Shown here piece after piece: positions 2 through 21,735 of a stretch of DNA of 64,000 nucleotides. This DNA is from Nitrospirota bacterium. GTDB taxonomy: Bacteria; Nitrospirota; UBA9217. The stretch spans positions 93,948-157,947 of the forward strand of contig CAWBNQ010000010.1 in NCBI GenBank assembly GCA_963790205.1. The letters run 5' to 3'. How positions within the stretch are numbered: the first letter of the stretch is position 1; each line of letters opens with the position of its first letter. The position numbers and the translations under genes were made by a program. The notes under the pieces are model-generated. The model saw only the letters and a list, made by a program, of their open reading frames with translations. It made no database searches and was not told the origin of the DNA.

Positions 2-529
2 ACCGTTACTGCGCAAACAGCCGGCGCAGCCAACCTTCAGACCAACTCTCCGCTGGATGTGGTCTTTGCCGATGCCGCCGGAACCGATGACTCCGCCCGG
101 GACGGAAAGATGTCGGCGCGAGGGACCTACACGGTTAGCGCGCCGGTGCTGACGGTCACCAAGACCACGGCGGTCTACTCTGATCCGTTCAATGGCACCA
201 CGAACCCGAAGGCGATCCCCGGCGCGGTCATGACCTACACGATCACGATCGCGAATGGGGCCGGCGGCGCGACCGCCACGTCAGTTTCGATCGTGGACGC
301 CGTCCCGGCGAATACGACGTTCAAAACCACGTACGTTGACGCCTCTACCACCTGCTCAGGCGCAGACGGCATCGTGGTGGGCGCGGGGGCCGGGGTCTGC
401 AAAACCAACACGAACGATGGGGACGGCGCGGACTACAACGTATCGAATGCAGGCGCGGTGACGGTGACAGGGCTTTCGGTCGCCGCCAGCGCCAGCGCTG
501 TTGTCAGGTTCCAGGTTACGATCAATTAA
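2..529 (+). CDS. DUF11-domain secreted protein, putative fimbrial subunit (5' end outside window)
   Basis: Frame is open from position 2. C-terminal DUF11 motif LTVTKT...PKAIPGAVMTYTITIAN...SIVDAVP...VRFQVTIN; paralogous to 1317..2441. Confidence 0.85.
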   Translation, partial: TVTAQTAGAANLQTNSPLDVVFADAAGTDDSARDGKMSARGTYTVSAPVLTVTKTTAVYSDPFNGTTNPKAIPGAVMTYTITIANGAGGATATSVSIVDAVPANTTFKTTYVDASTTCSGADGIVVGAGAGVCKTNTNDGDGADYNVSNAGAVTVTGLSVAASASAVVRFQVTIN

Positions 530-592
530 GAGAAGCGATCATTCCATGATGGTCTAGTAAAAAACAGGAATGAAACAAAAAAGGAGGAACTC

Positions 593-1087
593 ATGAAAAG
601 AACGGTAATCAGCATCTTGGTCGCGCTTTTGCTCCTTCCTGCCGCGGCACGGGCGCAGCAAAAGGGAAGCGTAGAACTTAAATCGATTGCGGAAGTTGAG
701 GTCACGAAAACGAACGCAAAGGGCGAAAAGGAGGTGAAACGCGTTGACACGGCCAAGGCCAAGGTCGTGCCGGGCGATATGGTCATCTTTACGACGACCT
801 ACACGAACATCGGCAAGCAACCGGCGGACAAGGTCGTGATCACGAACCCCGTGCCCGAACATATGGATTACCTGGACAAGAGCGCCGAGGGCAAAGGAGC
901 GAAAATAGACTTCTCCGTGGACAAGGGAAAGAGCTACGAAACTCCCGATAAGCTTATGGTCACGGACGCGCAGGGAAAGACGCGGAAGGCGCGGCCTGCG
1001 GATTATACAACCATCCGGTGGACCCTGATCAAACCCGTGCCGCCGGGCGGCGCAGGCAGCGTCTCCTTCAGGGCCAAGCTGCAATAA
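593..1087 (+). CDS. Small exported single-DUF11-domain protein
   Basis: AGGAGG RBS; signal peptide ending AARA; VPGDMVIFTTTYTNIG..ADKVVITNPVP...IRWT...SVSFRAKLQ. Confidence 0.85.
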   Translation: MKRTVISILVALLLLPAAARAQQKGSVELKSIAEVEVTKTNAKGEKEVKRVDTAKAKVVPGDMVIFTTTYTNIGKQPADKVVITNPVPEHMDYLDKSAEGKGAKIDFSVDKGKSYETPDKLMVTDAQGKTRKARPADYTTIRWTLIKPVPPGGAGSVSFRAKLQ

Positions 1088-1316
1088 AGCAGGAAATGAC
1101 GTACCGTCCCGGTCACGTGGATCGGGAATGAATCAACAGAGATAATTTCGGGCACATTGGTTGAAAAATTTTAACAAGGAGGCAATTCGTGTGAAAGGAT
1201 AATCAGAGGGGAAGCATCACAAAAGAAAGTTAATAATTATGAAACGCATCTACGGACTACGGTCCGAACAGGCACATAAAACCATATAAAACGCAGCAGA
1301 ACGTAAAGGAGAAAAA

Positions 1317-2441
1317 ATGAAGACAGTAACGAAAAACATAGCATTGGCGCTGCTCCTCATCGGAGCGATGGCAATGCTGGCGCCGCAAACGGCCCTGGCG
1401 CTCGGCACCGCCGCAGGCACCCCGATAACCAACAACGCCGCCGTTAACTATAGCGTGAACGGCACGGGTCAGCCCCAGGTAAATGCCTCAGCAACCTTCA
1501 AGGTTGACGACAAGGTCAGCTTCACGTTGACTGCCCAGGATTCCGCGAACGTGACGATCTCCCCCAGCGGCGCAGCATACCAGACCTATGTGTTGACCAA
1601 TACCGGCAACGGCCCTCATGACTTTACCCTCGGTCCGGTAGTAATAGGCGGCAATACCCTTGCGCCTGCCACGGGGCCCACCTTGTATTCCACGAATACG
1701 GGTACGGGCGGCACGCAGTTGCCTATCGATGGAACCGCCACTCTTCCGTACATCAGCAATCTGGCGTCCGACGCGACAAGGACGGTCTATATGTACATAA
1801 CCGCGTCAGCAACGCCCACTGATGGACAGTTTGCCGACTATACGGTTACCGCCACGGCATACCAGCCCGGTAATCTCGGGAACCCGACCCCCGTCAAATC
1901 CTCAGTGCAAGCAGCAACGGATGCGACCGTTGACAAGAATTTAAATCTTAACGGTCAGGTATATGTCGTCCTGGCGGACGGACAGGGCAACGGCGGAGAT
2001 GGGCTCAGGGACGGCCTGTATGCCGTCATCGCGAAAAGCGGCGGCGGCTCCACCGTGGGCTTCCTTGTTTCGTCAGCCAATATTGCCGTCAATAAAACGG
2101 CCGCTCTCTACAGCGACCCTCTCGACGGCGTCTACAACGCTGTAACGAACAAGGCGCCGAAGGCCATTCCCGGCGCGTACATGATCTATACCCTGACCGT
2201 AACGAACAGCGGCACAGCCCCAACCAGCGCTCTCTCGATATCCGACACGCTGCCGGCGAGCCTGAGCTTTATCACTTATAACGACGGTGCGACCCCCTGC
2301 TCCAGCGGCCAGGTCGTTATCAACGGGTCCTGCTCTTCCGCCGGTGTGACCATCTCGGGCCAGAACCTGACAGTTACCGGCTTAAGCGCTGCATCAGGCG
2401 GTGGAACAGCAATCGTCAAGTACATGGTGACCATAAACTGA
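1317..2441 (+). CDS. DUF11-domain secreted protein, putative fimbrial subunit
   Basis: AAGGAG RBS; signal peptide ending ALA; N-terminal GTPITNNAAVNY strand; C-terminal DUF11 ending YMVTIN. Confidence 0.88.
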   Translation: MKTVTKNIALALLLIGAMAMLAPQTALALGTAAGTPITNNAAVNYSVNGTGQPQVNASATFKVDDKVSFTLTAQDSANVTISPSGAAYQTYVLTNTGNGPHDFTLGPVVIGGNTLAPATGPTLYSTNTGTGGTQLPIDGTATLPYISNLASDATRTVYMYITASATPTDGQFADYTVTATAYQPGNLGNPTPVKSSVQAATDATVDKNLNLNGQVYVVLADGQGNGGDGLRDGLYAVIAKSGGGSTVGFLVSSANIAVNKTAALYSDPLDGVYNAVTNKAPKAIPGAYMIYTLTVTNSGTAPTSALSISDTLPASLSFITYNDGATPCSSGQVVINGSCSSAGVTISGQNLTVTGLSAASGGGTAIVKYMVTIN

Positions 2442-2487
2442 TCTCAGTCGAAACGGCAAGAAAGAGCAAGGAAGTGAGAACGTCATT

Positions 2488-5400
2488 GTGAAAAATTTCT
2501 TCCCCATATCTGCCGCACTACGGCGCCTCTGCTTCGGCATCATTGCCGGGGCACGCGCCCTCGTGCGCCTTTTTGCGGAAGAGCTCGAGATCAGCCGCAA
2601 AGGCGCGGAGGGACCGAGATCGTCGTCTCGGCCTTTCCGTGCCTCTGCGGCGTCTGTTTTGTCCTTTGGCCCGCGCTCACGCGCGGCATTCGCTGTTTTA
2701 TGCATGTCTTTATCATTTATTCTTTTTCATTCCCCTGTCCTGTGGGCCGCCACTCCCGCGGGAACGGTCATCAGCAACACCGCCCTGGCGAACTATACGG
2801 ACGGCCCGTCGTCGGGCATCATCAGCAGGAATTCGAACACTTTTAACGTCACCACGGTCGCGTTCCGCACACCGGCCACGATCGAGTTAATGGAGTACGC
2901 GCCAGCGTTGCCGGGCGTCCAGAGCATTCCGGTACCGGCGACAGCGTACAGCACCAGCGGCTCGACTGCCGGGCCTTTTACGGCCCTGGGCCCTCCCCTG
3001 ACTCTGAGCGGCGCGACCATCAATCTGGGAAGCCCCGTCCCGCTCGCGGACACGGGCCTCTACCGCTCCGGAGAAGCAGTCTTTGTCCGCCTGACGGACC
3101 TAGACCAAAACACGGACCCCTCCACGGCCCAGACAGTGCTCGTGACCTTAACGGACGACCTGACCGGCGATACGGAAGTCCTCCGGCTCACGGAGACCGG
3201 GCCTAATACGGGCGTATTTACCGGTTATATCCAGACGACGGCCCAGCCCGCAGCCAATGGCAACGGACTGTTGAGCGTCTTGGATAATTCCCATATCACG
3301 GCCTCCTATGTAGACGCCGCGGATAGCACGGACAAGGCGAGCGCCAGGGCCTTGGTCAACCCGCTCTCCAAAGTGTTCAGCAGCGCTACCGGCCAACTTG
3401 TGAACGGGATCTCCATAACGCTCGTTGATGCGGCCACGAACCTGCCCGCGACGGTCTACGGCGATGATGGCGTGAGCATCTTCCCCTCGACGATCAAGAC
3501 GGGTATGACCACGACGGACGGAAGCGGGAAGATCTATTCCTTCCCCAGCGGAGAGTACCAGTTCCCCTACATTCCGGCGGGCACCTACCGCCTCGCAGTG
3601 ACGCCTCCGACGGGGTATAAAGCGCCGTCCACGGTCCCCACCGCAGCGCTCCAGAAACTGCCGGGCGGACCGTTCGTCATCGTTGACCCCGCTTCCCGGG
3701 GCGGTCAATTCACGGTGAGCGCCGGCTTCACGGCCCAGATCGACATCCCGGTGGATCCTGCAGGCAAGGGGCTCTTTCTGCTTAAATCCGCGGCAAATAC
3801 CGACGCGGCGATCGGGGACTTTTTGCAATACCAACTGAGCGTGCAGAACACCAATGCGACCGCGGCCGTGACGGGCGTTGTCGTGAACGACACTCTGCCC
3901 CTGGGGTTCCGCTACCGGAAAGGCTCCACCAAGATCAACCTCATTGCTGCTCCGGACCCCTCCATATCCGGCGACGGCCTTACCCTGACGTTCACGGTCG
4001 GAAGTATCCCGGCCGCGACGACGACGAACATCTCCTACGTGACGGAGATCGCCGCCGGAGCGAAAATGGGAACGGCCATCAACACCGCCGTCGCCCTGGG
4101 CAAGGGGGCGGTTTCCAATCCGGCCACGGCCTCGGTCCTGGTAAAGAACGACTTTTTCAGCGATAAGGCCTTCATCATGGGCGCCGTGCGGGTGGACGGC
4201 TGCGGAAAATCCGAGGCAGCCGAGAAGGGCGGTCTTGAAGGGGTGCGCCTCTTCATGGAAGACGGGACATACGTTGTGACCGATAAGAACGGCATGTTCC
4301 ACTTCGAGGGCGTCAACCCGGGCACTCATGTCGTGCAGCTCGATCTGGACACCCTGCCGGAAAAATACGAGGTCCTGTCCTGTGAAGAAAACGACCGGTT
4401 CGCGGAAACGCCCTATTCCCAGTTTGTGGACCTCCAGGGAGGGACCCTCTGGCGCGCCGACTTCCACCTGGGCCTCAAGGCCCGGGCCGTGGGCGAGGCG
4501 GGCCTGGAACTTCGGAGCGTCTTGAAAACAGCGCAGACCGGCAGCCGCGGCAATACGATCGAATACAGCGTTCCCCTCCGCGTGGGGTCCGTGCCGCTCC
4601 GCAACGTGCGTTTGACGGTCATGCTGCCCGAAGGTTCGACCTATCAGGCGGGGAGCAGCATGCTCAACACGGTCCCGCAGCCCGACCCGTCGAACGTGGA
4701 GAATGCTCTGACCTACCGCCTCGGGGATGTCCCCGCGGACTGGGAAGGCACACTGCGTTTCAACGCCGCCGTCCCCTTTGCAGGGAACGCCGGCGAGCTG
4801 GCGACCAAGGCGCTCCTCATCTTCGATACCCCGCAGAAAAAGAACGAGCGGACCCCCGTGGTGGACAACCTGCTCGTGCGGAACGTCGTGGAAGAGCGCC
4901 AGTCCGTTCCGGATGTCGTTCTGCACCCGAAGTTTGCGGTCCTGAGCGCTACCTTGAACAAGAAAGACAAGAAGGCCCTGAACCGCCTGATTAAAGATCT
5001 GAAAGAGTCAGGGGTGACACGCCTTATCGTGACGGGCCATACGGACTCCGGCAGGATCCGGGGACGGGCTGCGAAAAAATTCAAGGACAACTACGCGCTG
5101 TCCCGGGCCAGGGCCGAGACCGTGGGCCGCTACATCGCCGCGCGCCTCAAGCTCTCTCCCGAACAGGTGAACTTCATCGGAAAGGGAGCGGATGAACCCG
5201 TTGCAACGAACAAGACGGCGAAGGGACGCGCCCAGAACCGCCGCGTAGAGCTGCAGGTGGAAACCGAAAAAGTCATCGTCATGGCCGAACTGAAGAATGA
5301 AAAGGGCGCCAGCGGCGTTAAAACGGTGACAACCACGGGCCTGAGGCCGGGTGAGAAATGGACCGGACCGGAGACGAAAAAGCCCGTTCAGGACGAGAAG

Positions 5401-8400
5401 AAAATGCCCGAGTACACCCCTGAATGGCTCGAATCGGCGGAGCCGGGATTCGCGTGGCTCTGGCCCGGCGAGGGTTATTACCCGGCCATACCGGCCACGA
5501 AGATTGCCATCAAACACGACCCTGCGAAGAAGCTCAAGCTTTTCCTGAACGGAGAAGAGGTGAACGCGCTCTATCTCGACGGCACGCTCAAGCGGCAGGA
5601 TGGCAAGGTCGCCGTCAGCGTCTGGCGGGGCGTGAATCTCCGGGACGGAGACAATATTTTCGAGGCCATACAGTATGATGAAAACGGCGCCGAGGCGGGG
5701 AAACTGAAACGGGTCCTGCATTATTCCACGCCTCCGGTAAAGGCGGAGCTGGCGCCGGCGCAGTCGAAACTCGTGGCTGACGGCAAGAACCCTCCGGTCA
5801 TCGCCGTCCGGCTCACGGACAAGGACGGAGCTCCCGCGCGCGAGGGGGTCATCGGCGAGTACAGCATCGATCCTCCCCGTGTTTCGCGCCAGAGCGCCGA
5901 GGACCTCCAGAAGAACCCCCTGACCGCGTCCACGAGCGATAAGTTGAAATATCAGGTGGGAGCGAACGGCATCGCCCTCATCGAACTCCAGCCCACGACG
6001 ACAACCGGCGCGGCGGTGATCAAGATCCCCCTGCCGGACGGCGTCCATGAGATCCGGGCATGGCTCACCCCGGAAAAACGCGACTGGATCCTGGTCGGCC
6101 TCGCCGATGGGACGGTCGGCTACAACGTGGTGAAAAGCAAAATGGAAAACGCGCCCTCCGGCCAGGACGACCAGATCTATAGAGACGGCCGGGTCGCGTT
6201 CTACGCCAAAGGAGCGATCAAGGGCGAGTGGCTCCTTACCATAGCCTACGACAGCGACAAGGGTGGAAATAAGGATACGAAGAGCCTCTATCAGACGATC
6301 GACCCGAACAAATACTATACCCTCTACGGCGATGCCACGGACCAGCGCGCGGACGCGGCAAGCTCTCAGACCCTTTACGTCAAGATCGAGCGCGACCAGT
6401 TCTACGCCCTGTTCGGCGACTACGATACGGGCCTGACGGTGACCGAGCTGTCGCGGTATTCCCGCCAGTTCACGGGCCTGAAGTCGGAGCTGAAATCGGA
6501 ACATTACGATTACACGCTCTACGCAAGCCAGAATACCCAGGCGTTCGTAAAGGACGAGATCCAGGGCGACGGCACGTCCGGCCTCTACCGGCTGTCGCGG
6601 AAAAACATCATCGTCAATTCGGATTCAGTAGTCATCGAGACAAGAGACCGGTTCAGGAGTGAAGTGGTCCTCTCTTCCCAGCCGATGAGCCGCTTCGTCG
6701 ATTACACCATCGATTACGACGCGGGAACCGTCTGGTTCAAGTCGCCCATATTCAACCGGGATGCCAACTTCAATCCCATTTTCATCGTCGTGCGGTATGA
6801 GTTGTTCGATACATCGGGATCTACTTATAATAATTACGGCGGACGCGGAGCGGTGCGGGTCCTGAACAACCGGCTCGAGGTCGGCGCCACGCACATCCAC
6901 GAGGAACAAAACGGCGGCGCCGGAACTCTCACGGGCCTCGACACGACCGTCAAACTGGACGACCAGACGAAGATCAAGGCCGAGATGGCGATGACGAATA
7001 CCGACGAAGGCGGCGGCGCGAGCGACGGCTCCGCCTGGCTGGCGGAAGTGTCCCACCGCTCGGATAAGCTGGAGGGAAAGACATACGTGCGCGAGCAGGA
7101 ACCGGGTTTCGGTCTGGGTCAGCAGAACAACAGCGAGACGGGCACCAAAAAAACCGGCTTCGATCTTACCTACCATTTGAGCCAGTCATTCGACCTGACG
7201 AGTGACGCATTCCGTCAGGAAAACCTTACGAATAACGCGGTCAGGAACATGGCCGAGCTGCAGGGAAAGTACAGCGATAAACGCTACGAGCTTTTCAGCG
7301 GAGTGCGGTATGCGCAGGACGCGTTTGACGACGGCACAACGCAGACGTCGGACCAGATTTTCGTCGGCGGCAGGTACCTGATGACCGAGCGCCTTTCCGT
7401 CACCTTCCGCCAGGACCAGTCGATCGGCAATGAAAATGGGAACGCCGACTTCCCGACACGGACGACCCTGGGCGCGGATTACAAGTTGACCAACAGCTCG
7501 TCGCTCTTCGCGGCCGAGGAACTGACCCATGGAGCAGAGCTGGACACGGACACAACGCGTGTCGGACTGAGGTCGGCGCCGTGGACCGGCGGCCAGGTGA
7601 GTTCAACCGTGGAGGACCAGACCTCGGAAAACGGTGAGCGGCTCTTTTCCACCCTGGGCCTCAAGCAGACCTGGCAGGTGAGCAAACGGTGGACCGTTGA
7701 CGCCGGCCTGGACCGCTCGCAAACGATCCAGCAGACGACGTCCGCGACGACCGTTGCGCCGGTGGATCAATTCAACACCAACGTGCCTCCGGCCTCGGGC
7801 GGCCCGGACTTCACCGCCCTGTCGCTCGGCGCGGGTTACAAGGCGGACAAATGGGCGTGGACGGGCCGCGTGGAAGAACGGCACTCGTCGGATGACAATA
7901 AGTTCAGCGTCCTTTCAGGCGTGAACGGAGAAGTTTCTGAAGGGCTCGGTCTTGCGGCGGGAGTGCAGGAGTTCCACTCGACATTCAATACGGGGGTCAG
8001 CACCAAGAACGATGACGTGCGTCTCGGCCTCGTTTATCGCCCGAAGAACAGCGACTGGATCGTGCTCGACCGCCTGGATCTCCTCCGCGATGAACAAAGT
8101 AACGGTGCTTTCAACTACGACAACTGGCGCGTGGTCAACAACATGAACACGAATTTCAAAGCTGGCCCGGACACGCAGCTTTCCCTGCAGTACGCCTGCA
8201 AATACGTGCGGGAGACCATCGATGATCTGGACTACCGGGGTTATACGGACCTCACCGGATTGGAAGTCCGGTACGACCTGACGAAGAAATGGGACATCGG
8301 GGTGCGGGGCAGAATACTGCACTCCTGGAGTGTCGACCAGTACCACTACGGGACCGGGCTCTCGCTGGGGTACAACTTCGTGAAAAACGTGTTGATACGC

Positions 8401-8541
8401 GCCGGCTATAATATCACAGGCTTCACGGACAAGGATTTCTCGAAAGCGGACTTCACCAGCGAAGGTCCTTTTTTCAAAATCAGCCTCAAGTTCGACCAGG
8501 TATCGGTCAGGAGCGCCGTGAAATGGATCACCGGACTGTAA
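2488..8541 (+). CDS. Very large envelope protein: Ig-like/DUF11/SdrD-B-like domains, OmpA-like peptidoglycan-binding domain, probable C-terminal beta-barrel (start may be ATG 2705)
   Basis: Complete DUF11 (LFLLKS..DTLP..INTAVA); OmpA_C motifs GHTDS, NYALSRARA, GRAQNRRVE; about 800 C-terminal aa of amphipathic, aromatic-ended strands. Confidence 0.85.
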   Translation: MKNFFPISAALRRLCFGIIAGARALVRLFAEELEISRKGAEGPRSSSRPFRASAASVLSFGPRSRAAFAVLCMSLSFILFHSPVLWAATPAGTVISNTALANYTDGPSSGIISRNSNTFNVTTVAFRTPATIELMEYAPALPGVQSIPVPATAYSTSGSTAGPFTALGPPLTLSGATINLGSPVPLADTGLYRSGEAVFVRLTDLDQNTDPSTAQTVLVTLTDDLTGDTEVLRLTETGPNTGVFTGYIQTTAQPAANGNGLLSVLDNSHITASYVDAADSTDKASARALVNPLSKVFSSATGQLVNGISITLVDAATNLPATVYGDDGVSIFPSTIKTGMTTTDGSGKIYSFPSGEYQFPYIPAGTYRLAVTPPTGYKAPSTVPTAALQKLPGGPFVIVDPASRGGQFTVSAGFTAQIDIPVDPAGKGLFLLKSAANTDAAIGDFLQYQLSVQNTNATAAVTGVVVNDTLPLGFRYRKGSTKINLIAAPDPSISGDGLTLTFTVGSIPAATTTNISYVTEIAAGAKMGTAINTAVALGKGAVSNPATASVLVKNDFFSDKAFIMGAVRVDGCGKSEAAEKGGLEGVRLFMEDGTYVVTDKNGMFHFEGVNPGTHVVQLDLDTLPEKYEVLSCEENDRFAETPYSQFVDLQGGTLWRADFHLGLKARAVGEAGLELRSVLKTAQTGSRGNTIEYSVPLRVGSVPLRNVRLTVMLPEGSTYQAGSSMLNTVPQPDPSNVENALTYRLGDVPADWEGTLRFNAAVPFAGNAGELATKALLIFDTPQKKNERTPVVDNLLVRNVVEERQSVPDVVLHPKFAVLSATLNKKDKKALNRLIKDLKESGVTRLIVTGHTDSGRIRGRAAKKFKDNYALSRARAETVGRYIAARLKLSPEQVNFIGKGADEPVATNKTAKGRAQNRRVELQVETEKVIVMAELKNEKGASGVKTVTTTGLRPGEKWTGPETKKPVQDEKKMPEYTPEWLESAEPGFAWLWPGEGYYPAIPATKIAIKHDPAKKLKLFLNGEEVNALYLDGTLKRQDGKVAVSVWRGVNLRDGDNIFEAIQYDENGAEAGKLKRVLHYSTPPVKAELAPAQSKLVADGKNPPVIAVRLTDKDGAPAREGVIGEYSIDPPRVSRQSAEDLQKNPLTASTSDKLKYQVGANGIALIELQPTTTTGAAVIKIPLPDGVHEIRAWLTPEKRDWILVGLADGTVGYNVVKSKMENAPSGQDDQIYRDGRVAFYAKGAIKGEWLLTIAYDSDKGGNKDTKSLYQTIDPNKYYTLYGDATDQRADAASSQTLYVKIERDQFYALFGDYDTGLTVTELSRYSRQFTGLKSELKSEHYDYTLYASQNTQAFVKDEIQGDGTSGLYRLSRKNIIVNSDSVVIETRDRFRSEVVLSSQPMSRFVDYTIDYDAGTVWFKSPIFNRDANFNPIFIVVRYELFDTSGSTYNNYGGRGAVRVLNNRLEVGATHIHEEQNGGAGTLTGLDTTVKLDDQTKIKAEMAMTNTDEGGGASDGSAWLAEVSHRSDKLEGKTYVREQEPGFGLGQQNNSETGTKKTGFDLTYHLSQSFDLTSDAFRQENLTNNAVRNMAELQGKYSDKRYELFSGVRYAQDAFDDGTTQTSDQIFVGGRYLMTERLSVTFRQDQSIGNENGNADFPTRTTLGADYKLTNSSSLFAAEELTHGAELDTDTTRVGLRSAPWTGGQVSSTVEDQTSENGERLFSTLGLKQTWQVSKRWTVDAGLDRSQTIQQTTSATTVAPVDQFNTNVPPASGGPDFTALSLGAGYKADKWAWTGRVEERHSSDDNKFSVLSGVNGEVSEGLGLAAGVQEFHSTFNTGVSTKNDDVRLGLVYRPKNSDWIVLDRLDLLRDEQSNGAFNYDNWRVVNNMNTNFKAGPDTQLSLQYACKYVRETIDDLDYRGYTDLTGLEVRYDLTKKWDIGVRGRILHSWSVDQYHYGTGLSLGYNFVKNVLIRAGYNITGFTDKDFSKADFTSEGPFFKISLKFDQVSVRSAVKWITGL
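2594..2651. repeat. Imperfect palindrome (26-bp arms, 6-nt loop), REP-like
   Basis: GCCGCAAAGGCGCGGAGGGACCGAGA pairs with TCTCGGCCTTTCCGTGCCTCTGCGGC. Confidence 0.65.
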
Positions 8542-8608: not shown

Positions 8609-9984
8609 CACATCTGTCCAAAATAGATTTTGAATAATTGAAGGGGAAGCCTCACTTCAGGTATAGTAGGTTTGTCGAGGACCTAACTTTACTGAAGGAG
8701 GACATCCCCGTGAACAAGTTTAGCAGTATCTTCGGACAGATTCTACAGATATTTTCGCACCAGGAGTTTTATCGTGCGGTGCGGGAGACACAGGCAGAGA
8801 AAGGCGTAAAAGGATTTGGTTGCTGGGGCCAGTTCGTGGCCATGCTATTCTGTCAGCTGGGACAAGCGCATTCGCTTCGAGAGATCTGCGGCGGATTGGC
8901 TACCTGCTTCGGCAAGCTCAAACATCTCGGGATAGATGCTGCTCCCAAGCGTTCCACCTTGGCGTATGCCAACGCGCATCGGCCATGGCAATTGTATCAG
9001 AAGGTTTTTTATCAGTTGTTGGCAAAGTGCCGAGTCCTGGCGCACGGAAAGAAGCCGTTCCGGTTTAAGAACAAGCTGTTCAGCCTCGATGCGACACTGA
9101 TCGAACTCTGTGTGACCCTGTTTGACTGGGCAAAATACCGGCAGACAAAAGGAGCGGTCAAGCTTCACCTGTTATTGGATCATGAGGGATATCTTCCGGT
9201 TTTCGCTACGATGACTGAAGGGAATGTGCACGAAGTAAACATCGCGCACACGCTGAAGTTCCCCAAGGGTTCCATTTTGGCGATTGACCGCGGATATGTC
9301 GATTATGAACAATTCGCACGCTGGACGGAGACCGGGATATTCTTCGTAACGAAAGAGAAGGATAATGCCGCCTTCCGGATCATCGAAAGACGAGAGGTGC
9401 CCGAGAATCGGAACATCATCAAAGACCAGCTCATTGAGCTGACGGGCTACGAATCGATCAAGAAGTGCCCGCATACGTTGCGACGGGTAGAGGTCTGGGA
9501 CGCAGAAAATGAACGTATTATCGTTCTGTGGACGAACCATCTCACCTTTGGCGCGACGACCATAGCGAGCATTTACAAGGACCGCTGGCAGATTGAGGTA
9601 TTTTTCAAGACGATCAAGCAGAATCTGAAGATCAAAACATTCGTTGGGACGAGTCGGAACGCTTTATTGGTACAGATTTGGACAGCATTAATCGCTATCC
9701 TGGTGTTGAAGTACTTGAAGTTCCGATCCACACTCGGATGGTCGTTGTCGAATCTGGTTGCCATGCTTCGTTATAATCTCTTCACCTATAGGGATTTATG
9801 GACATGGTTGGATAATCCATTTGAAACGCCGCCTATTGTGCCATTTGCGGAGCAACTGGTAATGAGTTATCGGTAATTGGACAGCAGAATAAGGAACCTG
9901 AATCCGAGATGATGGATTTGTCTGTCTAAAAGCATTGATTGGCGGGGTGTGGATCAGGAAATTAGATTATCTTGGACAGCAATG
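8609..9984 (+). mobile_element. IS4-family insertion sequence, 1376 bp
   Basis: Terminal IRs CACATCTGTCCAAAATA / TATCTTGGACAGCAATG (13/17); perfect 9-bp target duplication GTATGAAGT at 8600..8608 and 9985..9993. Confidence 0.93.
8710..9876 (+). CDS. IS4-family DDE transposase (DUF4372-type N-terminus)
   Basis: SLDAT, IDRGY, YKDRWQIEVFFKTIKQ (YREK-like motif); GTG start after AAGGAGG. Confidence 0.93.
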   Translation: MNKFSSIFGQILQIFSHQEFYRAVRETQAEKGVKGFGCWGQFVAMLFCQLGQAHSLREICGGLATCFGKLKHLGIDAAPKRSTLAYANAHRPWQLYQKVFYQLLAKCRVLAHGKKPFRFKNKLFSLDATLIELCVTLFDWAKYRQTKGAVKLHLLLDHEGYLPVFATMTEGNVHEVNIAHTLKFPKGSILAIDRGYVDYEQFARWTETGIFFVTKEKDNAAFRIIERREVPENRNIIKDQLIELTGYESIKKCPHTLRRVEVWDAENERIIVLWTNHLTFGATTIASIYKDRWQIEVFFKTIKQNLKIKTFVGTSRNALLVQIWTALIAILVLKYLKFRSTLGWSLSNLVAMLRYNLFTYRDLWTWLDNPFETPPIVPFAEQLVMSYR

Positions 9985-10187
9985 GTATGAAGTAAACAAT
10001 GGAAGGCCACTGCAATGGGAAAACGGGCGGGACCGGCATCGCAACGCGCAGACCTGCTTCCCATTCCGGCCTTGCCCTCACCCGTCCGCTGACAGGCATC
10101 GTTGCAGTCCTTTGTTTCAAAATTGCGGTTACTGCGATGGAACATTCAGTGAACTTGTCAGATTCGGAACGATTTCGTGAACGACGT

Positions 10188-11819
10188 ATGAAAAAAAAGG
10201 CCTTCATTTTGATCATGGCAGCAGCGCTCCTTGCGGGTTACGCCGGGAAAGCGCAATCAGGGACCGAACAACCTGCCGAACTCGACAGGAAGATCGCGGA
10301 TCTTGCCGCGCAGATCGCTGCATTGCCCGCTCTGGCGCGAGGCGGCAAGATCGCCGTGTTTCCCATTTTAGAGCGACAGGACGGCGCTATGGACCCTTTT
10401 GGAATGTATGTCTCCAGGCGCATTATCGCACGCCTCGAAACGAGGGGCAGATTCGCCGTGGTGGAGAGCGGCCTGCTCATCAAGCTGCTCGATGAGCGCA
10501 AGGTCGGAATGCCCGGCGTGATGGATGATGATGCGGCGCGGAAAGCGGGTAAAGCCCTTGGCGTCGTGACCGCCGTGACAGGCGCCTACGCCTGTTCCGA
10601 TTCGCGCGTCAGGATCAGCGTTCGGGTCCTTTCCGCGGAGGGCGGGCCGGGTATCGCAACGATCGAGACGATCATCAGCAGGACCAGGGAAGTGGATCAG
10701 CTTTTGGCCGTGAAGGGGCCGATCGAACGCCGCTTAGAGCAACCTTCAGCGCAGAAAGAAACAATCAAAGGCGCTACGATGGTCCCCGTCTCGCTCGGGG
10801 ATGGGAGCTTTTCGACCGTGACCGGCATCCTGCCTCCCAAGTACCGGGGCTGCACCGTCCCTCTGCTCGATCAAAAACCCGCCGGCATTGTCCGCGAGCC
10901 CGACTACCGGGGATCGATTCGAAAGTACGGAACCATGAAGCTGGGCACCACCGGGAAGAACACCTTCCTGTTCGCCCTCGACATAACTCCCGGCGGATAC
11001 GCGGCGCTCTATTTCGATAAGAACCAGAACGGCGATCTCGCCGACGACGGGCCGATCGCGAACCAGGGGAAGAGCGGGACCTACTTTGCAGGCGCGCTGA
11101 CCTTGCCCTTCAGCAGCATCATGGACAAGGTGAACTTTTCTGAGTACCGCGGATGGTTTTGGGTCGATGCGGTGTCGTGGAGCCGGAATCGCATGTGCTA
11201 CTTCAGTACTACGCAGCTCAAAGGCGAGGCGACCATCGAGAGCATGCCTTACCTGGTCTACGTCGTCGATTCCCGCGAGAACGATGCCGATTATACGAAC
11301 GATGGGATATACATCGATTTGAACCAGGACAAAAGGATCGACGTTAAGACCGAGTATGTTCCGCCGGACGGCGCGGCAGTTATCAACGGCAAGAATTACT
11401 CCTTCAGGATATCCAGGGAAGCGGGGAGCAGGCGAGTGCTCTTCCAGGACCCGGCCGTCGGCCCGGGAGATGCGGCAAAAATCTTGAAAGTCACCCTTGT
11501 TCACGAGACCGAGCAGTGTCTCGTGCTTGATGTCGAATATTACCTGTCCGAAAAATTCCCGGGGAGAGCCATCGTCGGCGTCTATCCCGATATGCCGTAT
11601 TGGACCGTTGACGCCACACGGGCGTATCCGGGCAGGCATACGGTCAGCATCAAGGTGGACCTGCATTTTGACGCCAAGGGAAAAATGAAGACGGTGAAAT
11701 CCTCGACCCTGAGGTTTCAGATCGACGAGTACCAGGATTACAGTTATAAAGGCGAGATCTTTCGAAGGATCGTGCCGTTTGAGAAGCAGTGGAAAAGGCT
11801 TTCGGGAAACCTTCTGTGA
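10188..11819 (+). CDS. Exported protein with N-terminal FlgO/CsgG-like domain and uncharacterised C-terminal domains
   Basis: Signal peptide MKKKAFILIM...AQS; KIAVFP...FAVVES...AGKALGV..AVTGAY pattern; DxNxDG-like motifs (FDKNQNGDL, IDLNQDKRI). Confidence 0.65.
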   Translation: MKKKAFILIMAAALLAGYAGKAQSGTEQPAELDRKIADLAAQIAALPALARGGKIAVFPILERQDGAMDPFGMYVSRRIIARLETRGRFAVVESGLLIKLLDERKVGMPGVMDDDAARKAGKALGVVTAVTGAYACSDSRVRISVRVLSAEGGPGIATIETIISRTREVDQLLAVKGPIERRLEQPSAQKETIKGATMVPVSLGDGSFSTVTGILPPKYRGCTVPLLDQKPAGIVREPDYRGSIRKYGTMKLGTTGKNTFLFALDITPGGYAALYFDKNQNGDLADDGPIANQGKSGTYFAGALTLPFSSIMDKVNFSEYRGWFWVDAVSWSRNRMCYFSTTQLKGEATIESMPYLVYVVDSRENDADYTNDGIYIDLNQDKRIDVKTEYVPPDGAAVINGKNYSFRISREAGSRRVLFQDPAVGPGDAAKILKVTLVHETEQCLVLDVEYYLSEKFPGRAIVGVYPDMPYWTVDATRAYPGRHTVSIKVDLHFDAKGKMKTVKSSTLRFQIDEYQDYSYKGEIFRRIVPFEKQWKRLSGNLL

Positions 11820-11888: not shown

Positions 11889-12030
11889 GGAGAATAGTCA
11901 CGTGTCGCGCCATGTCCTCTTTTCCCCCTTGGGGAGAAGACCGGAGTGAGGGGGAGAGGAGGTTTTCTCTTGGCAGCAACGTACCCCGCAAAAGACATTA
12001 CCGTGCTCGAAGGGCTGGAGCCGGTCCGCA
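11889..12030 (+). repeat. Inverted diverged copy of the topoisomerase B gene leader and first 20 codons (partner 14030..14169)
   Basis: Matches the reverse complement of 14030..14169, including the AGGAGG RBS and TTG start; encodes LAATYPAKDITVLEGLEPVR. Confidence 0.93.
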
Positions 12031-12074
12031 GCGCCGTGAAATGGATCACCGGACTGTAGCCGTGATCGTGAAAA
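12030..12074 (+). repeat. 45-bp direct repeat copy 2 (3' end of the large envelope gene)
   Basis: 44/45 identical to 8512..8556. Confidence 0.95.
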
Positions 12075-12075
12075 G

Positions 12076-12102
12076 AAAAGACAGGCCAGCGGGCCTGCCT
12101 TT
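12076..12102. terminator. Possible bidirectional intrinsic terminator
   Basis: AAAAGACAGGCC-AGCG-GGCCTGCCTTT hairpin between convergent transcription units. Confidence 0.4.
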
Positions 12103-12194
12103 ATGACGTTCCGTCCGTTTTCCTTCCTTAGTCCGTTCCGTACCATGAATCAAGCGGGCCCCCCTGGTTCAGGGCCAGCCGCGCTCCGCACGGA

Positions 12195-14090
12195 TCAGAT
12201 ATCCAACTCCGCGAACTCCGCCCGTTCCTTGATGAACGAGAACCGGGCCTTGGGGTCCTTGCCCATAAGCCGCTCGAACACATCGCCCGTGGCCTTATGG
12301 TCCACGACCTGCACTTTCATGAGCGACCGGGTCCTGGGATTCATGGTGGTCTCCTTGAGCGTTTCGGGGTTCATTTCGCCGAGGCCCTTAAAACGCCCAA
12401 CCTCGTATTTTCTGCCGTTCAACTTCGCCAGGATCTTCTCTTTTTCCATCTCATCCATTGCGTAAAATACTTCTTTCCCTGCCTCGATCTTGTACAGCGG
12501 CGGCATGGCCAGGTGTACATGCCCTTTGTTGATCAGCTCCGGCATGTACCGGTAGATAAAGGTGAGAAGCAGCACGCTGATGTGCGCGCCGTCCACGTCC
12601 GCGTCGGTCATCAGGATCACGCGGTTATAGCGGAGCTTGTTGAGGTCGAAGTGCGCGCCCACGCCGCAGCCGAGCGTGGCCAGGAGGTTCTTGATCTCGT
12701 TGTTCGCCTGGATCTTCTCGAGGGAAGCCACCTGTTCCACGTTCAGGATCTTCCCACGGAGCGAGAGCACGGCCTGGGTCTTCCGGTCCCGGGCCATCTT
12801 TGCCGAACCGCCCGCCGAGTCGCCTTCAACGATGAAGAGCTCGGTGTCTTCCACCTTGTTCGAGGAGCAGTCCGCAAGCTTGCCCGGCAGGTTCAGCTTC
12901 AGGGACGACAGCTTCCTCGTCACGTTCTCCTTGGCCGCGCGGGAGGCGAGCCGCGCCTCCGCGGCCAGAAGCACGCGTTTCACGACCGCTTCGGACATGG
13001 TGGGGTTCGCGAGCAAATAGGCCTCGCAGGCGTTCTTGACCGAAGCCTCGATGGGAGACGAGATCTCGGGGTTATTGAGCTTCTCCTTGGTCTGGCCCTG
13101 GAACTGGGGGTTCTTCACGAGCACGCTCACGATGCCGTAGAGCCCTTCGTACACGTCCTCGGGCGCGATGGCCTTGATGTTCTTGGGGACCAGGTTCTTG
13201 CGCTCGGCATAGGCGCGGACGGCCTTGGTAAGCCCTCCCCTGACCGCAAGCTCGTGCGTGCCGCCGTCGGAAGTGTTGATGGAGTTTGCGTAGGAGTGGA
13301 TCTCGGTGTCCGTCGCGAGGGTCCAGTGCATTGCGCACTCGATCTTGAAATCGTCCTCTTTCTCGAAATAAAAGGGATCGGGATTGACGACCGTCGTGCC
13401 CGAGACGATCCGCTTGATGTAGTCCTGGATGCCGTTGTCGTACTTGAACGCGATCGGCTTCTCCCCGTCGCGGGGGTTCTCGATCGTGATCTTGAGGCCC
13501 TTGTTCAGAAAGGCCTTGCTCTCGGAGACATCGAGGATGTTCTTGTAATTGAAGCCTGTCTTTGAGAAGATGTCCGGGTCGGGCCGAAAATAGATCTGCG
13601 TGCCGTGCGCCTTGGTCGGCTTGCCCTTTTTGAGGTTCCCCTTGGGTTTGCCGCGCGAGAATTCCTGGGTCCACTCGTAGCCGTCGCGCCAGACCGTGGC
13701 AATGAAGACCTCTGAAAGGGCATTCACCACCGAAGCGCCCACGCCGTGGAGCCCTCCGGAAGACTTATACGCCGTATGGTCGAACTTCCCCCCGGCGTGC
13801 AGGGTGCAGAGGATCGTCTCGATGGCGGGCCGCTTTGTTTTCGGGTGGATGTCAACAGGGATACCGCGGCCGTTATCGATCACCGTTACGCCGCCGTCTT
13901 TTTCAAGCCTGAGGGTTATGGCCGTGCAATATCCGTTGAGCGCCTCGTCCACGGCGTTATCGAGGGTCTCCCATACAAGGTGGTGAAGTCCGCGCACGTC
14001 CGTCGAGCCGATGTACATGGCCGGCCGCTTGCGGACCGGCTCCAGCCCTTCGAGCACGGTAATGTCTTTTGCGGTATACGTTGCTGCCAA
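12195..14090 (-). CDS. Type IIA DNA topoisomerase subunit B (GyrB/ParE family, probably ParE)
   Basis: LEGLEPVRKRPAMYIG, GLHGVGASVVNALS, VEGDSAGGSAK, MTDADVDG, RFKGLGEMN; TTG start after AGGAGG. Confidence 0.93.
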   Translation of the reverse strand: MAATYTAKDITVLEGLEPVRKRPAMYIGSTDVRGLHHLVWETLDNAVDEALNGYCTAITLRLEKDGGVTVIDNGRGIPVDIHPKTKRPAIETILCTLHAGGKFDHTAYKSSGGLHGVGASVVNALSEVFIATVWRDGYEWTQEFSRGKPKGNLKKGKPTKAHGTQIYFRPDPDIFSKTGFNYKNILDVSESKAFLNKGLKITIENPRDGEKPIAFKYDNGIQDYIKRIVSGTTVVNPDPFYFEKEDDFKIECAMHWTLATDTEIHSYANSINTSDGGTHELAVRGGLTKAVRAYAERKNLVPKNIKAIAPEDVYEGLYGIVSVLVKNPQFQGQTKEKLNNPEISSPIEASVKNACEAYLLANPTMSEAVVKRVLLAAEARLASRAAKENVTRKLSSLKLNLPGKLADCSSNKVEDTELFIVEGDSAGGSAKMARDRKTQAVLSLRGKILNVEQVASLEKIQANNEIKNLLATLGCGVGAHFDLNKLRYNRVILMTDADVDGAHISVLLLTFIYRYMPELINKGHVHLAMPPLYKIEAGKEVFYAMDEMEKEKILAKLNGRKYEVGRFKGLGEMNPETLKETTMNPRTRSLMKVQVVDHKATGDVFERLMGKDPKARFSFIKERAEFAELDI

Positions 14091-14293
14091 AAGAAAACCT
14101 CCTGTCCCCCTCATTCCGGTCTTCTCCCGGGAAGAAAAGAGGAAACGGCGCTACACGTGATTATTTTCCCTTTCCTCTTGGGGAGAGGTCAGGCGAGGAG
14201 GGGTTGTCGATAGGGACCCTTATCGGTGCAGATTATAAATCATGAGGAACGATAAAGCAATATGAAGTTTTTGCAACGGATTACCCTGCATAT

Positions 14294-14398: not shown

Positions 14399-16157
14399 GT
14401 GGACGATATCAAAAAGAAAAAAGAGCAATTGGTCGCCGAGGTAAGGACCCTCCGGAGGCGTGCCGCCGAACTCGAGAGCGCAGCCGCCGGGCATGCTGGC
14501 GCCGCGACGCCGTGCGAAAGCGAGCAGCGCTACCGCCATCTGTTCGACGCGGCGCGGGACGGCATCGTGCTGGTGGAGGCTGATACCGGCTATATCATCG
14601 ACATCAACCCCTCCTTCCTCGCCATGGCCGGCTATACGCGTAACGAACTGATGGGGAGTAAACTCTGGCAAATCGAGCCGTTTCAGAACACCGATGCTAT
14701 CCAGGTCATGTTCAAGGAACTTCGGAACCAGGACCATATTTATTATGACGACCTGCCTCTGGATACAAGGAAGGGGAGCCGCATTCCCGTGGAGATCGTC
14801 GGGAGCGCGCACACGATCGGAGACCGGAAAATTCTGCAATACACCATCCGCGACATCGGCAAGCGCAAGGCGATGGAAGAGGAGTTGTGGAAAACCGAGT
14901 CGCGGTTCAGGATCCTCTTCCAAAAAGCCGCGATCGGAATCGCCATGGTCGACGCGGTGGGTGTCATCATTGAGTGTAATCCGGCGCTTGAGAAGATGCT
15001 CGGTTACAACGAAAAGGAGATGACCGGCAGGCACTTCACCGATTTCACCCACAAGGAAGACCTGCAGTCGGATACCGCGTGGTTCGAGGAGCTGCTCGCG
15101 CAGAAACGCGACAACTACCAGATGGCGATTCGCTGCCTGAGAAAAGACGGGGCCGTTGCCTGGGGGCTGCTCGCCGTCTCCCTGATCCGCAACAATAAAA
15201 ACGAGCCCCTGTACGCCATCCGCATGATCGAGGACATCACCGACCGCAAACGGGCCGAGGAGGTCCGTCATCAAATCGCGCCATTTCTACCTGTCACTCA
15301 TCGACGAGCTGCCGAACCCCATCCGGCGCACCGACGTCGATGCGCAGGCCGATTACTTCAACAAGGCCTGGCTCGAATTCACCGGGCGGTCCCTCAGCCA
15401 GGAAATCGGAAACGCATGGGGCGAGGGGGTCCATGCCGAAGACCGCGACCGGCTCATGAAGACCCATTCCGACTCTTTCGAACATCGTGCTCCGTACGTG
15501 ACGGAATACAGGCTCCGGGACCGCAACGGCGAGTACCGCTGGATGGTGGAATACGGGAGACCGATCAAGGACCTCGACGGAAGTTTCAGCGGCTATATCA
15601 GCTCGTGCTATGATGTGCAGGACCGGAAGACCTTCGAAGAGAAGCTCCATTCCCTCTCTATGACCGATGATCTCACCGGCCTCCTGAATCGGCGCGGTTT
15701 TTTCTCCCTCGCCCAGCAGCAGCTCAAGGTGGCGAACCGGACCAAAAGAGGGTTCCTCCTCCTCTATGTGGACCTCGACGGGCTGAAAAAGATCAATGAT
15801 ACGCTCGGCCATCCCGAAGGCGATCAGGCGCTGGTCGAGACCGCGTCCATCCTCAGGGAAATATTCCGTGAATCGGACATCATCGGCCGCCTCGGCGGGG
15901 ACGAATTCGCGGTCCTCGCGCTGGAACGAACAAGAGACGTCAAAGAGGAGGAGCGGGCGATCCTCAGGCGCATACAGGAAGGCGTTGAGGGCAGGAATGC
16001 GCTGCCGGACCGTCGCCGCACCCTGTCGCTCAGCGCGGGGATAAACACCTACGATCCGGAAAGGCCCTGCTCCCTCGACGAGTTTATCTCGCACGTGGAT
16101 TCCATCATGTACGAGGAAAAGAAATCAAAGTACCGGTCTCAGAAACGGGGCCCATGA
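14399..16157 (+). pseudogene. PAS-PAS-PAS-GGDEF diguanylate cyclase with a +1 frameshift near 15263
   Basis: Two PAS domains in 14399..15262. Removing one G restores SVIKSRHFYLSLIDELPNPI...YFNKAWLEFTG into the third PAS and GGDEF (RESD..GRLGGDEF). Confidence 0.85.
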
Positions 16158-17902: not shown

Positions 17903-19126
17903 ATGGGAAAAGCCTTGTTTTTTTCAGCTCTGAAGGGAGGTCGCCCGGCATCAACGACGCTGCCTCTCCTCGCTCTTCTCTTGTTTTCAGCAGCCTGCGC
18001 GCCCCGGCGTGCGCCGTCGGTAACTGAAACAGCCCTGCACTACAGCCCTGTCAGGATAGCATACGACGTTCCCGCGAGACCAGGCAGCCTGGCGTGGTCG
18101 CCTGATGGAAAACGCCTGGCATTCATCGGCAAGACGCTGACCGTCTACGATACGGGATCCGGCGAAAAAAAGTCCTTTTCAATCGATAACCCTTACTATA
18201 CGGCATGGGCGCCCGACAATACCCTCTACGTCCTGTCCCGCGACAGGGCGGGCAACGGCATTTTGTGTTCGCTTGAGGGGAAGGATTTTGCGATCAGGCC
18301 CATTTCCCTCGCTTATGATGCCGACGCGATCTACCCGACCGCTGACGGGAAAAGCCTGATCATCCTGTCCACAACGATGAAAAGTCTTTCCTTTGGAACG
18401 ACGATCAGCAGCGCCGTTGTTCTTCGGAACGTGGCAACGGACAGGTCGAAAACCGTTTACCGCTCCACGAGAACCTATATGATGAAAAATCCGGACGCCG
18501 CTCTCTGGACGGCGTGGATGCATGCGGGCCCGAGCCCGCTCGATGATGCAATGCTGGTCATGGAGCACGTCAAGCCGCCGGAAGTCGCATTCTACACAAA
18601 AGTGAACAGTATCGATCTTGCGACAGGAGAGCTTTCGGAAATGTCCGATCCGAACACGAAGAGGACCTATCTCTCAGCGAGCTGGTCTCCTGACGGAAAA
18701 CGGGCCGTGATGACCGACGGCAACGGCCGTATCGAGGTCCGGGACCGGCTGGGCAAAGGTATTGTTATCGACTGGTCGCTCACCGGCATTTACCCGTCAT
18801 GGGACCCCAGGGGAAGCAGGATCTATTCCGGCGGTTGCCTCATCGATTCCGACGGAAAGAACAGGGAAACCTTGATTGCCAACGCCGCCGGAAGCATCGC
18901 ACAATGGTCCCCGGACGGCGCCACGCTGGCGGTCGCGACGGGCGAGGAACTCCTGCTGTTTCGGGATATTCCCGCGTCTTACGTCTTGCCCGACCGGCCG
19001 CTCGACAAGGCCTTGTCCGAAAAGCTGTTTTTGCTGAAAGATCTTTTGGCAGAGGGCGTCATCTCTCCCCGGGAGTATACTGAAAGACGCAACAACCTTA
19101 TCGGGAAGCCGGAGGAAGGGAAATGA
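17903..19126 (+). CDS. TolB/WD40-like beta-propeller lipoprotein with C-terminal SHOCT-like domain
   Basis: Lipobox FSAAC; repeated WSPDG motifs; LKDLLAEGVISPREYTERRNNLI. Confidence 0.8.
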   Translation: MGKALFFSALKGGRPASTTLPLLALLLFSAACAPRRAPSVTETALHYSPVRIAYDVPARPGSLAWSPDGKRLAFIGKTLTVYDTGSGEKKSFSIDNPYYTAWAPDNTLYVLSRDRAGNGILCSLEGKDFAIRPISLAYDADAIYPTADGKSLIILSTTMKSLSFGTTISSAVVLRNVATDRSKTVYRSTRTYMMKNPDAALWTAWMHAGPSPLDDAMLVMEHVKPPEVAFYTKVNSIDLATGELSEMSDPNTKRTYLSASWSPDGKRAVMTDGNGRIEVRDRLGKGIVIDWSLTGIYPSWDPRGSRIYSGGCLIDSDGKNRETLIANAAGSIAQWSPDGATLAVATGEELLLFRDIPASYVLPDRPLDKALSEKLFLLKDLLAEGVISPREYTERRNNLIGKPEEGK

Positions 19127-21641: not shown

Positions 21642-21735
21642 AAATAAAAAGATGCTTCTAATCCGGTAACAGCCGGTATTTCCGGCGACAGTACAATAAT
21701 TGCGGGCGAAAAGCAAGGCTGAACAGAATGCGGCG

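Follow-up and report, generated by a model that had tools for sequence, protein, structure and literature searches.

A split DUF11/CLIPPER operon in a Nitrospirota bacterium and the self-locking surface fibre it may build

How might a bacterium with two membranes build a surface fibre from proteins in which a single domain appears to have been cut in two? We take up this question for a 64,000-nucleotide stretch of a Nitrospirota bacterium genome (GenBank assembly GCA_963790205.1, contig CAWBNQ010000010.1, positions 93,948 to 157,947 of the forward strand; hereafter the window). The window starts inside a plus-strand operon that encodes the end of subunit B, a 164-amino-acid (aa) protein, subunit C and a large platform frame, and an earlier note on this DNA had proposed that these proteins form a covalently cross-linked, sortase-free fimbria. 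Sequence comparison and structural models lead us to favour, with some reserve, a self-locking surface fibre built from split DUF11/CLIPPER halves and rooted in a predicted platform barrel. The earlier note was right on the split subunits, and its reading of them is supported; the predicted barrel, the tip and the disarmed nature of the 164-aa acceptor escaped it, as did the lock chemistry already published for BsaA.

Read from the sequences, the DUF11/CLIPPER domain is cut between genes such that proteins carry its front part, its back part or both. Pfam DUF11 covers residues 432-536 of the large protein but only residues 279-339 of the 374-aa subunit C, and PF01345/TIGR01451 is matched above cut-off by the 164-, 374- and 2017-aa proteins. 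The acceptor part, with Lys and Asp, is the C-terminal end of subunits and of large tip-like proteins, and the two missing strands, with Asn, are the N-terminal start of subunits and of the 2017-aa platform. All three residues occur together in one contiguous domain only inside the platform, not in the subunits; there the intact DUF11/CLIPPER domain (3769-4143, +) holds Lys433 (3784), Asp468 (3889) and Asn532 (4081), and in an alignment of 38 rows its Lys and Asp are each present in 37 and its Asn in 36, the remainder being gaps. The motifs that had been quoted for the large protein are all there.

Subunit C (1317-2441, +; DUF11 match) begins with a Sec-type signal peptide (1317-1400; …QTALA|LGT), with cleavage suggested by its A-x-A motif, and continues with a donor hairpin (1401-1508; mature residues 1-36, strands 8-15 and 27-34), a middle immunoglobulin (Ig)-like domain (1509-2075; mature 37-225) bearing an invariant N-x-G-N motif, and a truncated DUF11/CLIPPER domain as C-terminal acceptor (2076-2441). 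Its structural model resolves the same hairpin, middle domain and C-terminal domain (226-346) at a mean predicted local distance difference test score (pLDDT) of 94.8. Asn39 (1431) lies in the hairpin and Lys260 (2094) and Asp310 (2244) in the acceptor, at the codons first assigned to them; in the mature numbering of the models they are Asn11, Lys232 and Asp282. In subunits the Asn strand stands ~220 residues ahead of the Lys, and the chain stops before the position of the intact-domain Asn. The earlier idea that the missing strands had moved to the N-terminus is borne out, except that the donor is a two-strand hairpin rather than a single strand; its Asn lies on the first hairpin strand, the one that becomes penultimate once the domain is rebuilt. 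Subunit B, of which the window holds the 3' part (2-529, +; the end of the middle domain and the C-terminal acceptor; TIGR01451 E 2.9e-8), is 373 aa long, starts upstream of the window at L001:17356 and closes on ...VRFQVTIN*, so that both paralogs stop at ...VTIN*, as had been reported.

To place these proteins among relatives, we used the platform as query against GTDB genomes, which gave 580 relatives over the 41 of 64 parts scanned; the best 80 were taken, and from them 47 loci supplied 85 full-length subunits. The Asn-Lys-Asp triad, whose conservation the earlier note had singled out as a point on which its proposal could fail, occurs in 73 of the 85 subunits (Asp 85/85, Lys 81/85, Asn 75/85) although the chains share just 20-35% identity; of the four subunits that miss the Lys, three seem by eye to be misaligned and the fourth comes from a frameshifted gene. 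The chain ends one residue past the same alignment column in 83/85 subunits, more than expected by chance. A narrower alignment, which joins 59 of 64 homologues to the query and to subunit B (left out were the self hit, two partial sequences and two long low-coverage proteins), has invariant Lys and Asp and Asn in at least 90%. The last third of an intact-domain profile matched the N-terminus of 14/86 subunits versus 1/86 shuffled ones, and gave no score for the window's own subunit N-terminus. The best PDB match of the subunit profile was the CLIPPER structure 9IFR, weak (E 0.0095) and with the Asp in register. Plain sequence search of the subunit revealed no solved relative, nor did fold comparison, where the best Foldseek TM-score was 0.35 and the best VIA Z of 9.0 lay in the ordinary range. 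A profile search of representatives was discarded as a measure of family size, its 3322 matches being swamped by tandem DUF11 adhesins.

From the models and the sequences we hold it very probable that the donor hairpin of one chain completes the acceptor of a neighbouring chain. First, the architecture at the two ends of the proposed fibre calls for it. Among 34 large tip-like proteins, chosen by eye for a terminal acceptor, the end register is the same as in subunits, Lys is present in 34/34 and Asp in 32/34 (Glu in the other 2/34), and an N-terminal donor profile match occurs in 0/34. The platform N-terminus, conversely, is matched by the donor profile in 82/120 homologues (partial sequences among them), with no internal match shown; its donor hairpin in the window (2749-2853, +) has Asn97 at 2776, and the donor Asn is found in 31/31 ungapped rows. 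An Asn is already present in the one DUF11 domain of the platform that was scored, yet those 82/120 platforms also begin with a donor. Acceptor-only tips and donor-only platforms cannot complete themselves in cis, which supports complementation in trans. Second, two natural fusions (P0204 and L012:17251-19116) hold two subunit units per chain, the acceptor end of one running into the donor of the next, and thereby rejoin the split domain; a strict script recovered one such fusion among 445 long proteins and the second was read by eye.

Third, a two-copy model of subunit C reached a score of 0.70, the highest of three controls being 0.00; contact agreement between runs was at least 98% and partner pLDDT at least 91; the score mark used was reached by 20/30 solved homo-pairs and by 1/23 solved monomers. 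The confident interface is one-way and head to tail, the acceptor of copy 1 facing residues 1-38 of copy 2 only, and includes an Asp282-Asn11 contact between copies with an expected error of 1.4 Å. The structure prediction that had been suggested as a check places the donor in trans beside the Asp; the Lys232-Asn11 pair is not among the 25 contacts listed. In fold matches the two subunit domains lie lengthwise along tandem repeats of adhesins, and in the 3qe5 match model residues 2-346 run along 1113-1466 with the donor lying as if in the last-strand place of the preceding domain, no more than a hint that the donor points away from its own chain in the monomer model. Conserved gene order, another check named at the outset, is likewise found: the 164-aa gene and at least one subunit gene stand upstream of the platform in 42/43 loci with at least 5 kb of sequence available.

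The 164-aa gene (593-1087, +) encodes an exported single-domain acceptor with a PF01345/TIGR01451-type domain, related to the subunit acceptor by a profile match of 97% probability. All 49 members of its family share the end register, and the residues of the bond have been given up: Lys stands at the bond position in 0/49, the catalytic Asp is kept in 4/49 and is replaced by Asn in 44/49, which in the window's protein corresponds to Ser31 at the Lys position and Asn85 at the Asp position. The family is also richer in Lys plus Arg than the subunits (12% versus 3%), and the protein is present in 26/301 genomes of the phylum. Because an acceptor without bond residues cannot be locked, these features fit a reversible donor cap or chaperone, and on its sequence the 164-aa protein is likely to be one. 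In a second cluster (L012:16667-23052) one subunit of 621 aa comprises two units, and the 164-aa homologue there has kept its Asp.

Which subunit would form the bulk of a fibre is suggested by the RNA. Two stem-loops fill the interval from the end of subunit C to the probable platform start (2498-2658, +), with a z-score of -5.1 and 0/200 shuffles as stable; a look for carriers of this RNA brought none among the matches listed. Across loci (12 shuffles each), structures with z<-2 follow 36/43 platform-adjacent subunits, versus 7/37 and 10/48 after other genes. The stem-loops are likely to serve as an mRNA stabiliser or partial terminator, and stable structure specifically after the platform-adjacent subunit suggests that this subunit is the abundant one. 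A quick tree roughly separates two subunit types (3-4 changes versus 28 when shuffled). In this genome subunit C occupies the major-subunit position and groups with subunit A, a third paralog upstream, and subunit B is of the type usual at that position; local duplication or recombination (window 1317-2441; L001:15974-18477) is a possible cause of this swap.

The platform occupies a 2017-aa open frame (2488-8541, +) whose start is probably TTG 2659 or ATG 2704 rather than GTG 2488, and it strings together the donor, an Ig stalk, the intact DUF11 domain, an SdrD_B-like domain, an OmpA-family peptidoglycan-binding domain (4933-5241, +; PF00691 E 7.7e-15), Ig domains and a predicted barrel. In the AlphaFold2 model of its last 1043 residues (mean pLDDT 79.9), two Ig-like domains are joined to a long series of amphipathic strands, with a small beta insert at aa ~1351-1419. 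The C-terminus is thus predicted to be a giant outer-membrane beta-barrel (6196-8487, +) of ~38 strands on our count. It was assigned to no known family, the many matches of the model to known barrels being partial (best Z 14.2, root-mean-square deviation 7.7 over 309 residues), and the region has no Pfam family match; one platform region has 3047 homologues. Three predicted 38-stranded barrels of Deinococcus radiodurans, mentioned in PMC9388160, may be relatives of the platform barrel. With the OmpA domain placed between donor and barrel, the stalk would lie in the periplasm or else run back through the pore. A second barrel gene was also seen in locus L061.

Loci of this kind were found in Nitrospirota, Desulfobacterota, Proteobacteria, Lentisphaerota and Fibrobacterota. 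A cyanobacterium, Synechococcus sp. NIES-970, has a related kit on a plasmid, made up of a donor-bearing protein of 910 aa whose last strand is of the same kind, together with a 164-aa homologue, a barrel and a tip, with the donor-bearing stalk encoded as a separate gene; an Acinetobacter plasmid carries a similar set in which the subunit gene is apparently in pieces. The arrangement differs in Sinorhizobium and Eleftheria, where the barrel gene comes after a single giant DUF11 adhesin (3362 or 2647 aa) whose C-terminus is homologous to the platform stalk, and in Vibrio a similar 3771-aa gene lies ahead of the barrel. As the adhesin C-terminus matches the platform stalk, one structure seems to exist in two forms, as split kit and as single-chain adhesin, a relation that favours export through the barrel. 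Tentatively, and on balance with more doubt than assurance, the kit may represent a widespread, separate pilus class that arose from a cut-up giant DUF11 adhesin and combines a fully covalent tip-to-anchor chain, export through a ~38-strand barrel and an 'inverse' chaperone.

Assembly could then proceed as follows. Sec export and signal cleavage would free the donor hairpin, and the 164-aa acceptor, disarmed by the residue losses seen in it, may hold that hairpin reversibly in the periplasm with no cross-link. The tip, having only an acceptor, would take the donor of an adaptor subunit, after which copies of the major subunit would add head to tail. Asp310 would catalyse the interchain Lys260-Asn39 bond, a chemistry proposed here from 9IFR and BsaA on residues that are conserved. 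The platform donor would close the last acceptor, tying the fibre to the peptidoglycan-bound barrel, and the fibre would probably leave through that predicted barrel. A shear- and protease-resistant adhesive or biofilm fimbria is the likely function.

Several observations weigh against this scheme or limit what supports it. The loci are the best 80 of the 580 platform relatives and are not independent. The donor Asn is absent from 10/85 subunits, including subunit A of this genome, which has Ser where Asn is expected, and 9 of these 10 belong to the subunit type that precedes the 164-aa gene; a matching loss of Lys or Asp from tips where the adaptor donor lacks Asn was looked for and none was found, and since those tips keep Lys and Asp, some joints must be non-covalent. 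In the dimer model Lys232 is part of the interface, but its pair with Asn11 falls outside the list of the 25 contacts that are best defined. Such a dimer test may be passed by a split domain through its likeness to intact domains, the alignment was author-supplied, and the model is silent on polymer length. Donor pLDDT is 90-95 in the monomer model too, leaving room for fold-back in cis. The assignment of Ser31 to the Lys position of the 164-aa protein was read from strand periodicity, profile alignments having left the register unfixed.

How long the chain grows is where the strongest alternative enters. We think a many-copy shaft likely, if by a modest measure, and set against it an unlikely but serious reading, a modular adhesin of fixed short length in which tip and platform are combined with a single copy of each subunit, with no long homopolymer. 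Such an adhesin would replace the single giant DUF11 adhesin served by related barrels in other bacteria; it draws support from the Sinorhizobium, Eleftheria and Vibrio barrels that follow one giant adhesin gene, and so from the two-forms relation itself, and from the two distinct subunit types that most loci keep. The subunit nevertheless docks on itself head to tail in the dimer model, and the stable hairpin after one subunit gene in 36/43 loci is what would be expected for excess production, both of which speak for the many-copy shaft.

Whether the joints are covalent is a separate matter. By analogy with published bonds, an interchain Lys260-Asn39 isopeptide lock is probable. The competing account, quite improbable in our estimate, is a donor-strand fibre that is mostly non-covalent, in which the triad is structural or slow to bond and the strands alone hold the chain. 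The Asn-less donors favour it, as do two reports, one in which BsaA N35A oligomerises until heated (10.1101/2024.11.04.621531) and one in which the bond is absent from some DUF11 domains (10.1101/2025.04.25.650565). It has to contend with the retention of Lys, Asp and Asn across chains as divergent as these, and with the 164-aa acceptor, which has shed Lys and mostly Asp and so shows that the fold does not need the triad residues. Least probable are circularly permuted monomers, stable secreted two-domain proteins with their own hairpin in their own acceptor, which fit the high-confidence donor strands of the monomer model but conflict with the want of a linker between donor and middle domain, with the end-to-end alignment to tandem repeats of adhesins and the donor placement in the 3qe5 match (indirect evidence), with tips and platform that cis folding cannot serve, and with a dimer model that prefers trans. 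Trans complementation, for which the earlier note had argued, is supported by the tip and platform architecture, the fusions, the one-way dimer model and the weak 9IFR match with its Asp in register.

The closest chemical precedent for the self-locking fibre is BsaA of Clostridium perfringens, a TasA-family protein described in a preprint as undergoing 'donor-strand exchange and lock' (10.1101/2024.11.04.621531). There an N-terminal Asn strand completes the neighbour and locks to its Lys via an acceptor acid without a sortase, as proposed here. BsaA differs in its TasA fold, in using Glu as catalyst, in needing a SipW peptidase and in its monoderm host, and its bond-forming homologues are reported mostly from Clostridia and Enterococcus (10.1101/2024.11.04.621531). 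The present system has instead the DUF11 fold, a putative Asp catalyst, a two-strand donor, two-domain subunits and diderm hosts, and adds a dedicated barrel and a disarmed acceptor. No subunit matched the TasA/camelysin family at E 0.1, and no peptidase gene was found in the cluster or the upstream stretch. The other precedent is the CLIPPER domain itself: CnaA-type bonds join the first and penultimate strands, and 9IFR (CLIPPER/DUF11, PF01345) uses Lys715, Asp748 and Asn806 (PMC12617251). The domain family is the same, with a first-strand Lys, a catalytic Asp and a penultimate-strand Asn, and the platform retains an intact copy; CLIPPER, however, is published as an intrachain bond in single-chain adhesin stalks, whereas here the domain is cut and the bond would be interchain.

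A third archetype, the archaeal thread Saci_0406, combines donor-strand complementation with a proposed sortase-free interchain isopeptide bond (PMC9715654). It differs in being archaeal, in a bond that runs from the terminal amine of Asp24, at the N-terminus, to Asn57 in subunit n+2, and in having no outer-membrane platform; it was not among the subunit fold matches listed, though a likeness may exist. TLP-1 (PMC11494351), Pam pili (PMC13278184), tafi (PMC11821415) and the Litorilinea grappling hooks (10.1101/2025.08.19.671072) were considered and, from the parts of those reports available, are different systems. Sortase pili differ in their sortase and LPXTG sorting signal, the subunits here ending on a beta strand.

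In layout the kit resembles the chaperone-usher pili (Fim, Pap), which share an acceptor-only tip, adaptor and major subunits, donor-strand joints and a single operon with a periplasmic helper and an outer-membrane barrel. The hairpin after the platform-adjacent subunit can be likened to the papA stem-loop after the major subunit gene, and the usher barrel has 24 strands versus the ~38 predicted for the platform. PapD, however, donates a strand, whereas the only helper candidate here is a single DUF11-like domain of 142 residues that is acceptor-like; the terminating donor is moreover part of the platform, and the joints are predicted to be covalent. In its working the system is like a chaperone-usher pilus fitted with a BsaA-type lock, and it belongs to neither family. 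Exchange-and-lock chemistry (BsaA), a different interchain bond (archaeal threads) and DUF11 bonds as intramolecular links are already published; new here are the disarmed 164-aa acceptor and the conserved hairpin after the likely major subunit. A search of the full-text literature, with most subscription journals outside its coverage, listed none that treats a split-DUF11 fibre or the platform barrel.

If true, the proposal would mean a sortase-free covalent fimbria in many environmental diderms, exported by neither usher, secretin nor curli, and thousands of barrel proteins that now lack annotation would gain a function. It would also suggest what the thin filaments left unassigned in biofilms and cryo-EM surveys may be, and would provide a natural directional split-domain ligation pair that polymerises, SpyTag/SpyCatcher being a pair of comparable kind.

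The window holds the 3' part of a larger conserved kit. Upstream on the same contig lie the start of subunit B and the gene of subunit A, and ~5.5 kb further upstream, on the opposite strand and past a two-component pair, is a tip-like gene; its product of 1073 aa contains two complete DUF11 domains and finishes in a truncated one. The pair between the tip-like gene and subunit A (L001:11218-15413) consists of a sigma-54 response regulator and a seven-transmembrane hybrid histidine kinase, which are possible regulators of the cluster. Directly 3' of the platform gene is an IS4-type transposase gene (8638-9876, +; DDE_Tnp_1 and DUF4372), at the place where many relatives have the tip gene; given this transposase and the tip-like gene upstream on the opposite strand, the cluster may have been rearranged. 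The host genome, 98% complete and with Nitrospirota as its closest named relatives, is that of a diderm, with three Omp85 matches and secretins elsewhere in the genome; the usher family PF00577 had no match in it, the Escherichia coli positive control having matched, and neither did the sortase family PF04203. That the window itself has no chaperone-usher, type IV pilus or curli genes, as claimed at first, agrees with a family scan of 33 further open reading frames of at least 200 aa, which found no pilus family, smaller frames being outside that scan.

Elsewhere in the window, a PAS-PAS and a PAS-GGDEF frame overlap in different frames (14399-16157, +) and look like one frameshifted diguanylate cyclase gene. 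A type II topoisomerase B subunit gene (12195-14114, -) has no A-subunit frame directly after it, and ~11900-12150 resembles the 5' region of that gene. A RuBisCO-family large-chain gene (20490-21716, -) stands beside a multihaem cytochrome gene (19123-20436, +). Three frames, two in the window and one upstream of it on the same contig, had no Pfam match, encoding 606 aa (9999-11819, +), 355 aa (25132-26199, -) and 471 aa (L001:5687-7102, -), and the 606- and 471-aa products look exported.

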